From NCBI GenBank assembly GCA_964461985.1, contig CAYWWG010000002.1, positions 1 to 41,297 of the forward strand: a stretch of 41,297 nucleotides of DNA. Direction: 5' to 3'. A model generated the notes under the pieces. It saw only the letters and a program-made list of their open reading frames with translations, had not been told where the DNA came from and did not search any database. Shown in pieces: positions 4,018 to 41,297 of the stretch. Position 1 is the first letter of the stretch; each line of letters opens with the position of its first letter. This DNA is from an uncultured Candidatus Saccharibacteria bacterium. GTDB taxonomy: Bacteria; Patescibacteriota; Minisyncoccia; Phycocordibacterales; UBA9973. A program made the translations under genes and the position numbers.

Positions 4018-4821
4018 TTAAATTTTACGGTTTTTTTCAGCATCTTCTAAGAGTTCTTGATTAGAATATTTTTTCCTTTTTATCAGTGTAAATGGGTCTT
4101 CTAATGCACCACCACCTGCTGGGCGTATAACACGTACCCAGTCGAAACGTACTGACATACCGATATCCTTAAATTCAGGATTTTGGCGTGTGTAATGTAT
4201 AATCGAACAGTTTGGTACACGACCCCATTCTTCGTCAGTCGATAAATATGCATTACTTTGTAACAATGGCTGTCTTTCTAAAACTATCCGGAATGCACGC
4301 ATAACATGCCCGTGGCAAACAATGATAACGTTTTGACCGTCGCATTCTCGTGCTAATGTGTCCAGCTCCATTTTTATTCTTTGGCATAGATCTGCAACAC
4401 TTTCACCTTGGGGCGGTCTATATAGAAATGGTTGAGTATCAAAAAACTTTTGTTGGTCAGCATATTTTTCATCACGTACTGAAGGTGTAATAACATTAAA
4501 CAAACCCCCATCTCGTTCGCGTAGGTTGTATTTTATCATCCATTTTGCATTTTCAATATTTAAATATGCGGCAGTTTGTTTTGCTCGAACATTGTCTGAT
4601 ACTATCATGCGGTCAAAATTGGTAAAATTGTTTTCTTTTAACCATTTGCCAGCTAGTTTGGCTTGCTCTATTCCTAATGGAGTTAGTGCGTACTGTGATT
4701 CGTGTAAACTTAAGAAATCTTCGGTGAAAGAATTTTTCTCATCTTTTGTTTCTTCAAATTGCCGTCTGGCAAGGTTTCCTTCAGACTGTCCGTGTCTGAC
4801 CAGGAAAAGGTTTTTTGGCAT
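4018..4821 (-). CDS. Histidine phosphatase superfamily (phosphoglycerate mutase-like) protein
   Basis: LVRHGQSEGN catalytic RHG motif near the N-terminus. The ORF track starts at 4827 (MGMPKN). I prefer the ATG at 4821 because a TACAAT box (4834-4829) sits 7 nt upstream of it. Confidence 0.8.
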   Translation of the reverse strand: MPKNLFLVRHGQSEGNLARRQFEETKDEKNSFTEDFLSLHESQYALTPLGIEQAKLAGKWLKENNFTNFDRMIVSDNVRAKQTAAYLNIENAKWMIKYNLRERDGGLFNVITPSVRDEKYADQQKFFDTQPFLYRPPQGESVADLCQRIKMELDTLARECDGQNVIIVCHGHVMRAFRIVLERQPLLQSNAYLSTDEEWGRVPNCSIIHYTRQNPEFKDIGMSVRFDWVRVIRPAGGGALEDPFTLIKRKKYSNQELLEDAEKNRKI

Positions 4822-4935
4822 TCCCATAATTGTATAGATTTAAATAATTATATTTATTTTTACTCTACACTTTTTATATTCTTTAGTCAAATATATTTTA
4901 TATATAAATAAATAAGTTTTTGCTATAATACACAC

Positions 4936-5430
4936 ATGAAATTAAAAAAGAAGATTATACCTATTATTGTTTCAGTCCTGGTTATTGTTGGTATCAGCTA
5001 TGTTATATATAGTAAAGTTGAACCACGACCATCTGTATATGACAACACTCCTTTACAACAAAAACGTATATTAATCGGTAGTACTACATATACTGTGTCA
5101 GTTGCCGATACAGAGGCTCGCCGAGAACAGGGTTTGTCTGGTACAAAATCCTTGTTACCACATACGGGTATGCTTTTTGTTTTTGAAAATTCTGGTAAAT
5201 ATGGTTTTTGGATGAAGGAAATGCAATATCCGATAGACATTGTTTGGGTAAATGTAAATGATCAAGGTGTTGGTAGTATTGTGGACATTGAACAAAACGT
5301 GCAACCCGAAACATATCCTAAAATTTTTACAAATGTCAATATTGCCAACGCTGTAATCGAGGTTACAGCCGGTGAAATGGCTAAACAAAATATAAAAGTC
5401 GGGGACACTGTATACCTCGGTAAAAAATAA
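4936..5430 (+). CDS. DUF192 (COG1430) family protein with an N-terminal membrane anchor
   Basis: GLSGTKSLLPHTGMLFVFENSGKYGFWMKEMQYPIDIVWVN matches the DUF192 core. TATAAT at 4924-4929 lies 6 nt before the ATG. Confidence 0.7.
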   Translation: MKLKKKIIPIIVSVLVIVGISYVIYSKVEPRPSVYDNTPLQQKRILIGSTTYTVSVADTEARREQGLSGTKSLLPHTGMLFVFENSGKYGFWMKEMQYPIDIVWVNVNDQGVGSIVDIEQNVQPETYPKIFTNVNIANAVIEVTAGEMAKQNIKVGDTVYLGKK

Positions 5431-5592
5431 CCATTGTTATAAAAACATTTTTCCGTTTTGCTTTACATGAACCTAAAATTGATTTGTTATGGTCTTTTTT
5501 GTGTTTAAAATGGTTGCTAAGGCTTAAATTTTTAAAGGAAACAGGGTACAATAGTTAGACAAAAAATTATTATCAATTATTAGAAAATACCT

Positions 5593-40606: not shown

Positions 40607-40621
40607 TTTTGATGACTTCTT

Positions 40622-40957
40622 TTATTGAAAAACAAATTCCCGTTTTCCAATTTTCACTACATCGATTGTGTGCAATGGGCCACGTTCTATAGCTACTCTT
40701 TGGATATGAAATTTATTAGGATATTGTTGAATATCCTTTTTGATAAGATCGATTACATCTGCATGTGCTGTATACAGATTTTTCTGGAATTTCACAATCC
40801 TGCTCTCTACTTCTTTTTCGATATTATTGAAGTAGTGTTGCAGAGTTAGTCGGTCTTCTCTCATCTCTGTGTTGTTTCTCATCACTTCAGAAATTTCGTT
40901 TTTTAATTGCCAAAGTTTATCATCAGAAATGTTTTGGATATGTTCTATCTGTATCAT
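40622..40957 (-). CDS. Hypothetical protein (111 aa)
   Basis: Clean ORF that shares the bidirectional terminator. I recognise no motif. Confidence 0.45.
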   Translation of the reverse strand: MIQIEHIQNISDDKLWQLKNEISEVMRNNTEMREDRLTLQHYFNNIEKEVESRIVKFQKNLYTAHADVIDLIKKDIQQYPNKFHIQRVAIERGPLHTIDVVKIGKREFVFQ

Positions 40958-41051
40958 AGTATTTTTTGCGATTGTACGCTTGGCAGTATTATATCATAAA
41001 TGCATTTATAGTCAACATGTCAGAGAGTGCTAAAAACGGTATAATATACTT

Positions 41052-41297
41052 ATGTCATATACCGTTCGTACTGGTCAGTTCGAAGGACCATTAGAAATAC
41101 TATTAGAGCTCGTCGAAAAGCGAAAGCTTTTTATTAATGAACTTGCCTTAGCTTCTGTAACTGAAGATTATCTAAATTATATACGAAACATGGCCACAGA
41201 AAACGTTGGCCAAAGCTTAGACGACAGTACCGCTTTTTTATCTGTCGCCGCAACTTTGTTGCTTATTAAATCTCGTGCATTATTACCAGGTCTTTCT
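41052..41297 (+). CDS. scpA: Segregation and condensation protein A (N-terminal part; runs off the window)
   Basis: My own translation: MSYTVRTGQFEGPLEILLELVEKRKLFINELALASVTEDYL, the typical ScpA N-terminus. TATAAT at 41040-41045 lies 6 nt before the ATG. Confidence 0.8.
   Translation, partial: MSYTVRTGQFEGPLEILLELVEKRKLFINELALASVTEDYLNYIRNMATENVGQSLDDSTAFLSVAATLLLIKSRALLPGLS

Follow-up and report, generated by a model that had tools for sequence, protein, structure and literature searches.

The subject of this study is a 41.3 kb stretch of DNA with a GC content of about 37% (hereafter the window, meaning the whole stretch that was analysed) and the promoter hexamers that stand immediately before the start codons of many of its genes. 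The window carries housekeeping genes for SecA, DnaE, a class II ribonucleotide reductase, a split transketolase, fructose-bisphosphate aldolase (FBA), the ribosomal proteins L25, L31 and L9, a release factor and ScpA, as well as the genes for RNase P RNA and tRNA-Ile. Contigs identical to the window are present in three public samples (SRR13612670, SRR6837583 and ERZ27283041). Two sets of relatives were used for comparison. The release-factor set was obtained by a scan in which one genome per species was kept, and it comprises 80 loci with 1.33 Mb. The release factor protein is 92–93% identical to that of the window in three of these loci and 64–73% identical in the remainder. All of the loci are labelled as metagenome-assembled genomes of Candidatus Nomurabacteria, Paceibacteria or 'Minisyncoccia', some of them bearing an automatic Saccharibacteria label. 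This identifies the window as chromosomal DNA from a bacterium of the Patescibacteria (Candidate Phyla Radiation, CPR), belonging to the Nomurabacteria/Paceibacteria group. The second set, 119 metagenome loci with 0.67 Mb, was gathered via a 16S motif and not via a protein, and is independent of the first. Both sets cover the surroundings of one or two marker genes and not whole genomes.

The first-pass annotation had listed 19 genes in which a −10 hexamer, often with an extended TGn, ends 6–10 nt before the ATG, and had put the number of such first-in-unit genes at 20 or more. All 19 boxes are present with the hexamers, spacers and ATGs described. The hexamer is an exact TATAAT in 14 of them and has one mismatch in the other five (TATTAT twice, TATACT, TATAGT and TACAAT); the TGn extension is found at 10 of the 19 sites. 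One site had been overlooked, that of the L25 gene at 29956, which brings the number to 20. The sites are the following:

4819–4834, minus strand: TACAAT-N7-ATG of a histidine phosphatase gene, start 4821; position 1 of the His_Phos_1 profile falls on residue 5.
4921–4938, plus strand: TGcTATAAT-N6-ATG of a DUF192 gene, start 4936, divergent from 4821.
9369–9386, plus strand: TGcTATAAT-N6-ATG of secA, start 9384, directly 3′ of the terminator hairpin 9334–9362; position 3 of the SecA_DEAD profile falls on residue 5.
15731–15746, minus strand: TATAAT-N7-ATG of dnaE, start 15733.
16154–16171, plus strand: TGaTATAAT-N6-ATG of a Y1-transposase-like gene, start 16169; box in 5 of 5 orthologues.
16856–16873, plus strand: TGgTATTAT-N6-ATG of a 49-aa open reading frame (ORF), an N-terminal fragment of RNase HII, start 16871.
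17072–17086, plus strand: TATAAT-N6-ATG of the N-terminal half of transketolase, start 17084; box in 11 of 22 orthologues.
20043–20064, plus strand: TGcTATAAT-N10-ATG of the C-terminal half of transketolase, start 20062, 3′ of a low-GC two-gene insertion; predicted 5′ untranslated region (UTR) of about 3 nt.
23610–23630, minus strand: TGgTATAAT-N9-ATG of a GT2 glycosyltransferase gene, start 23612, with TTGAAA as the −35 element.
24308–24323, plus strand: TATAAT-N7-ATG of a DUF975 gene, start 24321.
26037–26054, minus strand: TGaTATAAT-N6-ATG of a PfkB kinase gene, start 26039, back to back with 26103; box in 31 of 37 orthologues.
26091–26105, plus strand: TATAAT-N6-ATG of the class II FBA gene, start 26103; box in 32 of 41 orthologues.
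29940–29958, plus strand: TGgTAACCT-N7-ATG of the ribosomal protein L25 gene, start 29956, a weak hexamer; identical in the related loci L001–L003.
30674–30691, plus strand: TGtTATACT-N6-ATG of an SLT transglycosylase gene, start 30689, directly 3′ of the terminator 30639–30674; box in 41 of 50 orthologues.
32092–32110, plus strand: TGcTATTAT-N7-ATG of the ribosomal protein L31 gene, start 32108, within an 18-nt gap 3′ of the SLT gene.
32484–32500, plus strand: TATAAT-N8-ATG of the peptide chain release factor gene, start 32498, 3′ of the hairpin 32459–32475; box in 38 of 79 orthologues.
33494–33510, plus strand: TATAAT-N8-ATG of a gene for an LRR protein with a signal peptide, start 33508.
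36170–36187, plus strand: TGcTATAGT-N6-ATG of a TP_methylase-family gene, start 36185.
36932–36946, plus strand: TATAAT-N6-ATG of a gene for a 135-aa membrane protein, start 36944.
41040–41054, plus strand: TATAAT-N6-ATG of an ScpA-like gene, start 41052, which runs off the window.

The distance between hexamer and ATG was assessed without any gene annotation. Each TAnnnT hexamer with at most one mismatch from TATAAT was located, and its distance to an ATG opening an ORF of at least 80 aa was recorded. The window gave 12 sites at spacer 6 and 7 sites at spacer 7, against about 2 at each other spacer. In the 1.33 Mb of the release-factor set the same count was 224 at spacer 6 and 187 at spacer 7, against about 45 elsewhere, and in the 16S-anchored set it was 49 and 50, against about 10. 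A strict test, in which a box with a spacer of 5–9 was sought before the first-ATG start given by a simple gene finder, was positive at 13 of 35 naive first-ATG starts of the window. In 1000 dinucleotide-preserving shuffles of the 60 nt upstream of the starts, 2.47 ± 1.52 positives were obtained, with a maximum of 9. Among the relatives the strict box was found at 279 of 803 first-in-unit genes, with 49.7 ± 6.6 in shuffles (z = 34). Two control sequences gave no peak: plasmid pXO1 of B. anthracis, which has a GC content of 33% and Shine–Dalgarno (SD) led genes, with a box at 0 of 37 annotated starts, and a 50-kb segment of E. coli, with a box at 0 of 42 starts.

These numbers bear directly on the simplest alternative, that the pattern is a functionless by-product of AT-rich composition and of a choice of starts fitted to the motif. 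TATAAT-like words are frequent at 37% GC, some of the internal ATGs had been picked by the motif, and a generic two-hexamer promoter scan of the window returned 62 sites against 61.3 in shuffles, which is no excess. At this GC content the generic scan is uninformative, since the signal lies solely in the phase with the ATG. That phase appears as a two-position spike in a histogram that knows nothing of annotated starts, and it is missing from an equally AT-rich Bacillus plasmid. The boxes are conserved at orthologous genes over about 80 species despite unrelated flanks, and the chosen ATGs are backed independently by Pfam onsets and public gene calls. The shuffle and histogram statistics already refute the by-product explanation, to which we attach practically no probability.

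Conservation was followed at the ATG of orthologues aligned by their N-termini. The strict box stands at this ATG in most orthologues of the PfkB, FBA and SLT genes and in about half of those of the release factor gene (N5–N9), in the numbers given above; the release factor gene keeps it despite unrelated flanks. It is also found in 8 of 11 rhodanese orthologues and in 45 of 71 orthologues of L25, or in 62 of 71 if a loose box is accepted. The closest relatives of the window share the hexamer and the spacer length with it and differ by substitutions within the spacer and further upstream. In other relatives, for instance L038, L068 and L079, the release factor gene lies directly 3′ of the L31 stop codon (...TAAATG). 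In L055 and L061, the most GC-rich relatives (about 49–51%), the −10 box of the release factor gene is replaced by a repeated CTAGAACCTAGC(C/T)ACTAGAAACTAGAACCT element about 50 nt upstream of the gene.

The box has the properties of a sigma-70 extended −10 promoter, namely a TGn, a TATAAT-like hexamer and a weak −35 element. When 411 boxed genes were aligned on the hexamer, T (68%) and G (63%) prevailed at the TGn positions (−3/−2 of the hexamer), and another T stood two bases before them; across a 17-nt spacer, the −35 position showed a weak TTG (T50/T47/G27). The peak at 6–7 nt equals the canonical distance between −10 and +1. It is exclusive to ATG, the profiles of GTG, TTG and CTG being flat, as would be expected if a terminal AUG is the sole initiation signal. 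Such a strong preference for AUG is a mark of leaderless mRNAs, in which the AUG would be 5′-terminal. The context of the boxed starts, with a pyrimidine at −1 in 78–91% and A at +1, is the one preferred for transcription starts. Non-boxed genes, too, often have T at −1 (61%), and the argument from start context is weaker for this reason. An internal ruler is provided by the RNase P RNA gene, in which six bases separate TGtTATATT (7973–7981) from G7988, the base at position 1 of the Rfam model. In E. coli, the mature 5′ end of RNase P RNA is the primary transcription start of rnpB. At the leadered genes (1870, 11918 and 40957) the hexamer also occurs, together with a good TTGACT, at a distance of 24–110 nt upstream, and promoter-type hexamers precede an ORF-free unit (8518–8546) and tRNA-Ile. 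The promoter of RNase P RNA and those of the three leadered genes are:

7973–7988, plus strand: TGtTATATT-N6-G, promoter of RNase P RNA, with the predicted +1 at 7988.
1922–1950, minus strand: full promoter, TTGACT-N17-TATACT, which lies about 45 nt before the ATG at 1870; the leader is A/T-rich and has no SD.
40988–41015, minus strand: TTGACT-N16-TGaTATAAT promoter; the ATG at 40957 has a leader of about 24 nt, with no SD.
11771–11799, plus strand: TTGACT-N17-TGcTATACT promoter; the ATG at 11918 has a leader of about 110 nt.

The tRNA-Ile promoter, TTGCTA-N17-TGcTATAGT (35075–35118), lies 14 nt before the mature 5′ end, so that RNase P would be left with about 8 nt of leader; its spacing is unlike the N6 geometry of the protein genes and of RNase P RNA.

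That transcription starts at or next to the ATG had been proposed from the boxes themselves. The predicted position is now backed by the spacer, the TGn and −35 traces, the ATG-only peak, the dependence on the gap to the upstream gene described below, the conservation and the RNase P ruler. No computational test favours a chance pattern or an RBS-like (ribosome-binding-site-like) motif, and all of them support a start on the ATG or within 1–3 nt of it. From the architecture, its statistics and conservation, and the lack of SD and anti-SD sequences, we infer both the start positions and the mode of ribosome recruitment.

No GGAGG-like element had been noticed upstream of any gene, and none was found; a stray GGAG occurs at −14 to −20 in only 2 of 39 starts. 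Comparison with SD-motif statistics, which had been recommended, showed depletion. In the clade, SD 4-mers at −20 to −4 precede 2% of the boxed genes; the figure is 10% for the other first genes and 6% for internal ones, compared with 38% in E. coli and 62% in pXO1. Their frequency is no higher than in a control region at −60 to −44, and before boxed and internal genes it is lower than there. The genes without a box thus do not carry SD-type sites in their place, the motif preceding only 6–10% of them. The frequency of G at −8 to −1 drops to 3–7% before internal genes.

The cause of the loss of SD motifs is visible in the window, at its first bases:

1–50, plus strand: 3′ end of the 16S rRNA gene, with the universal AGTCGTAACAAGG, helix 45 (CACGGCTAGC-GGAA-GCTGGTCGTG) and the tail GGAATAATTCAATTTGAAACC.

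The altered 16S tail to which the first-pass annotation referred is thus real. Past helix 45 the gene reads GGAATAATTCAATTTGAAACC in place of GGATCACCTCCTTA, without the CCTCC of the anti-SD; as RNA the tail is GGAAUAAUUCAAUUUGAAACC, without CCUCC. The window opens one base past the start of the AAGTCG... 16-mer, and the 16S end has GGCA and not GGTA. Just about 45 nt of the gene lie in the window, which is why it is absent from the Rfam output. A metagenome scan with the first 17 bases of the window returned 120 loci (L083–L202), 119 of which are 16S ends, L160 being the exception. CCTCC is missing from the 16S end in 118 of the 120. The tail is canonical in L184 alone (590–635, GGATCACCTCCTTTCT) and near-canonical in L114 (6621–6666, GGATCACCTTCTTTCT), both with the same helix 45; in two more loci CCTCC occurs in the downstream spacer only. 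The few genes adjoining L184 and L114 show the SD-like GAGAGGTAAGGA and AAGGTGAGAGGT, which hints that the loss of the anti-SD and the loss of SD motifs go together within the group. CCTCCT has been reported in only 48% of Parcubacteria 16S genes, and the authors inferred from this that no SD helices are formed (Tsurumaki et al. 2022, RNA 28:1041, PMC9297842), and most CPR have lost Era, which binds GAUCACCUCC (PMC10582724).

The sequence that replaces the anti-SD is self-complementary in most relatives, in the forms UUCA-AUU-UGAA, UCCA-AUU-UGGA, UUCC-AAUU-GGAA and UUUC-AAGU-GAAA. A U-run with an A-run is a further variant; these five forms appear to be compensatory. CUCA/UGAG and GUCA/UGAC also occur. 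Of the 103 unique tails, 65 have a Watson–Crick stem of 4 bp or more whose offset is constant; the shuffles gave 27 ± 4. An alignment with a covariance model gave weak support: helix 2 is 64% paired, 3 of its 4 pairs have double changes, and variants with other loop lengths are mis-registered. Because of this mis-registration and the low pairing of helix 2, the data are suggestive of a tail hairpin.

Several observations concern the surroundings of the 16S gene. It is followed by a terminator-like hairpin, aaaaaccgccgaaaggtggtttttg (about 218–245), and then by a minus-strand protein gene (window 50–345). No 23S gene or spacer tRNA follows it in the window, and tRNA-Ile(GAT) lies 35 kb away (35118–35190); the rRNA genes therefore appear to be unlinked. 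In many related loci an (A/G)GTCGA-like motif recurs 40–70 nt past the 16S tail.

The A/U-rich tail raises the question of whether the box might act in translation. It occupies the position of an RBS (−7 to −12) and could be a non-SD RBS or a translational enhancer, either of the GeneMarkS-2 'group B' type or an A/U-rich site for S1, on leadered mRNAs that start further upstream. Upstream regions are marginally more complementary to the tail than shuffles are, with longest matches of 5.09 against 4.76 ± 0.13. The suggestion that internal genes pair with the new tail is not supported, as these matches are not clustered at any position upstream. Tail-complementary motifs as a replacement for SD are likewise unsupported; they are simple AT words (AATTAT, ATTATT) with no preferred distance to the start, and a reversed control gives the same profile. 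A general RBS should also be found before tightly packed genes. The frequency of the box, sorted by the gap to the upstream gene on the same strand, is 4% for overlapping genes and 8% for gaps of 0–3 nt, which is background (n = 241 for gaps of up to 3 nt). It rises to 32–34% at gaps of 15–39 nt, to 47% at 40–79 nt and to 49% at divergent neighbours. Its absence from internal genes argues against a general RBS and sets the motif apart from the 'group B' type of Bacteroidota. The box further carries the TGn and the −35 trace, which are specific to RNA polymerase, and the same hexamer serves leadered genes from a distance and stands before RNA genes. The spacer is a −10-to-+1 distance and agrees with the 5′ end of RNase P RNA. 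An RBS function of the box is thus quite improbable.

Genes without a box appear to be expressed in two other ways. Same-strand gaps of less than 40 nt in the clade have their mode at +1 nt (75 of 615), and 315 of 615 lie between −4 and +8 nt; in the window, the genes at 17990, 22330, 26989, 27317 and 37358 are tightly coupled. This arrangement is expected under termination–reinitiation, which is the most likely mode of translation of the operon-internal genes to judge from their spacing. The leadered genes have A-rich, G-poor upstream regions.

In the window, 20 of 39 protein genes have leaderless-type starts according to manual curation, or 20 of about 32 if seven tightly coupled internal genes are set aside. 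In the clade, with naive first-ATG starts, the net excess of the box over background is about 31–34% of first genes and 15–26% of short-gap genes, and the boxed fraction ranges from 0 to 0.57 across loci. The statement that the mRNAs are mostly leaderless is thus a fair one for the transcription units of the window; for protein genes the share is about half, and by the strict box about one third of clade first genes, so that for the clade the statement is an upper estimate. Several points weigh against an extensive use of leaderless mRNAs. A strict box is lacking at about 40% of the transcription units of the window and at roughly two thirds of clade first genes, and 'mostly leaderless' therefore overstates the clade-wide picture. 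The spacers of N8–N10 (32498, 33508, 23612 and 20062) lead one to expect a 5′ UTR of 1–3 nt and not of zero. The boxes at 32108 and 33508 lie 18–35 nt past the upstream gene with no terminator between, so that read-through transcripts may be an additional template for the translation of these two genes. The gene finder, which relies on the first ATG and on codon log-odds, is crude. Finally, the Deinococcus radiodurans MP1 plasmid, intended as a positive control, gave a box at only 2 of 33 first genes; a strict TATAAT and a 50-kb plasmid sample are unsuitable for this purpose, and the result counts neither for nor against the method.

In a third explanation the boxes are real promoters, but their leaderless transcripts contribute little or are translated poorly, and most protein comes from read-through or upstream-initiated transcripts by some other SD-independent route. 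In its favour, the boxes at 32108, 33508 and 20062 lie in very short gaps without a terminator, leadered genes of the same genome are evidently translated without SD, and some of the boxed genes are operon-internal in certain relatives (the release factor gene in the loci named above, and tktC). Many boxes, however, lie directly 3′ of an intrinsic terminator (9384, 30689, 16871 and 17084) or face a divergent gene (4821/4936 and 26039/26103), and at such sites no upstream transcript can supply the mRNA. Terminator-type hairpins lie upstream of the boxed window genes 9384, 16871, 17084, 30689 and 32498. A hairpin with a T-run ending at most 55 nt upstream was found at 20% of boxed genes, mostly 10–14 nt before the hexamer, against 7.5% in a coding-sequence control. 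The strict requirement for ATG is, moreover, what selection for leaderless translation predicts. We consider this explanation unlikely, though somewhat less so than an RBS function.

With high probability, therefore, the sequence data describe an SD-independent lineage in which the −10 box at the ATG would yield leaderless mRNAs for about half of the genes, the remainder being coupled or leadered. We propose that this lineage no longer uses SD pairing. A sigma-70-type promoter, mainly of the extended −10 kind (T-n-TGnTATAAT) with a weak −35, would place its hexamer 6–7 nt, and up to 10 nt, before the ATG. From this placement, RNA polymerase would start at the A of the ATG or 1–3 nt earlier, and the mRNA would begin with 5′-pppAUG. 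By analogy with other leaderless systems, the terminal AUG may be recognised directly by ribosomes, either as 70S or as 30S-IF2-fMet-tRNA. Internal genes, at −4 to +8 nt from the upstream stop, would be reached by termination–reinitiation. The leadered minority would use full TTGACT/TATACT promoters, and its A-rich, G-poor leaders would be initiated without SD pairing. A broader proposal is that the whole clade, the Nomurabacteria with the allied Paceibacteria, gave up SD/anti-SD pairing, that its 16S tail was rebuilt as a conserved self-complementary element (UUCA-loop-UGAA and covarying versions) replacing CCUCC, and that expression proceeds only by leaderless initiation, reinitiation or A-rich leaders. 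We regard the chances for and against this proposal as even.

The position of the box also has consequences for the choice of start codons. The pattern had been used to pick internal ATGs for five ORFs over-extended by the six-frame track. Four of these starts are backed by Pfam profile onsets, given here as residue/profile position: SecA 5/3, Transketolase_N 13/5, TP_methylase 6/1 and His_Phos_1 5/1. The fifth, 27317 in place of 27269, is right as a start, in agreement with public gene calls, but it has no −10 box and lies 4 nt past the upstream stop. Onsets of further profiles lie close to the proposed N-termini (L31 1/1, FBA 3/2, L25 4/1 and the PHP domain of DnaE 8/1), and pattern-picked ATGs coincide with the onset of signal-peptide-like N-termini. 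Public gene calls match 36185, 27317 and most other pattern-picked starts. For the SLT transglycosylase, the public calls on identical contigs (L204 and L205) place the start at 30713 and not at 30689, giving 458 instead of 466 aa. This start, 8 codons later, drops the MRK n-region of the signal peptide, and the leaderless model would correct such mis-calls.

Other features of the window deserve mention. The halves of the split transketolase (17084 and 20062) flank a segment of 29% GC (17990–20041) with two genes that have no Pfam match. The C-terminal half lies directly 3′ of the upstream ORF, and is thus coupled to it, in 17 of 30 relatives; its own TGcTATAAT-N10 promoter in the window suggests an insertion followed by the gain of a promoter. 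The ORF at 16871–17020, in which a Lys-rich end adjoins the RNase HII N-terminus (MKKYVVGIDEVGRGPIAGPV...), is thus a remnant or a truncated gene with a good promoter still in place. The RNase P RNA match (7988–8463) spans 476 nt against a model of 367 positions and scores 100.3 bits at a threshold of 100; within it lie an AT-rich insertion (about 8270–8375) some 100 nt long and a repeated GGCCCCGTAAGGGCGTCGGAG segment (about 8100 and 8213). Two ORF-free units, both candidate small RNAs bordered by sites that resemble promoters and terminators, lie downstream of it. The first has the promoter-like TTGACA-N17-TATACT (8518–8546) and a hairpin at about 8607–8632, and the second, at about 8660–8812, ends in aaaggccggtatgttatagtaccggccttt. 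No credible Rfam match to these units was obtained in the region 7900–9400 at relaxed thresholds. A 30-codon lysine-rich ORF (MATKKKAVKKAVKKSAKKAVKKAAKKTKKI, 9223–9315) lies just upstream of the terminator–promoter junction of secA and has no −10 box at N5–N9.

The arrangement in the window resembles that of known leaderless-rich bacteria. In Mycobacterium, Corynebacterium, Streptomyces and Deinococcus a Pribnow box lies 6–8 nt before first-in-operon starts (PMC6028130; PMC3898074; PMC4007540), and GeneMarkS-2 places Actinobacteria and Deinococcus-Thermus with such a box in its 'group C' (PMC6028130). The same feature, a −10 box about 6–8 nt before the starts of first genes and far above background, is found in the window, in its relatives and in the 16S-anchored loci. 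A quarter to 60% of transcripts are leaderless in those bacteria, and their promoters have a TANNNT/TATAAT −10 element and a weak −35, as here. Mycobacteria also use GUG for leaderless starts, unlike the lineage of the window, in which only ATG is found at leaderless-type starts. Genomes of group C are GC-rich, keep CCUCC and use SD for their remaining genes, whereas here no gene class has SD and CCUCC is missing. The CPR lineage is not among the leaderless-rich groups reported so far. Bacteroidota (Flavobacteriia; 'group B' of GeneMarkS-2, with a sequestered anti-SD) share the absence of SD motifs and the A-rich, G-poor upstream regions. Their mRNAs are leadered and their anti-SD is mostly kept; here, by contrast, a sigma-70 −10 box is phased with the ATG and is absent at tightly coupled internal genes. 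The promoters of Bacteroidota are also different, with a −7/−33 consensus. In haloarchaea and mitochondria, too, most mRNAs are leaderless and leadered ones do not depend on SD, and mitochondrial rRNA likewise has no anti-SD. The 5′ end, however, is set by a bacterial −10 element here, and not by TATA/BRE at about −26 as in haloarchaea or by processing of polycistrons as in mitochondria.

The loss of the anti-SD in Parcubacteria has already been published (PMC9297842); these bacteria belong to the same broad group, and the 16S end in the window is an instance of that loss. The paper gives no account of how mRNAs are selected, of leaderless architecture, of promoters or of a self-complementary tail. 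A full-text literature search, beyond which lay most subscription papers and the supplements of two key papers, returned no paper linking leaderless mRNAs to CPR, Patescibacteria or Parcubacteria. The promoter-on-ATG architecture would supply the missing half, namely how a start codon is chosen without SD pairing. It would extend leaderless-dominated expression to a new AT-rich and deeply branching lineage within the CPR/Patescibacteria, which make up a large, mostly uncultured share of bacterial diversity and have reduced ribosomes. In practical terms, gene callers tuned to an RBS misplace some starts in such genomes, as in the SLT gene called 8 codons short, and in expression cassettes for CPR a TGnTATAAT placed 6 nt before the ATG would be preferable to SD. 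The architecture also provides a natural system for deciding between an ancestral origin of leaderless initiation and its repeated emergence as ribosomes and genomes became reduced. If the broader proposal for the clade is true, these organisms would parallel, as cellular bacteria, the solution found in mitochondria or haloarchaea.

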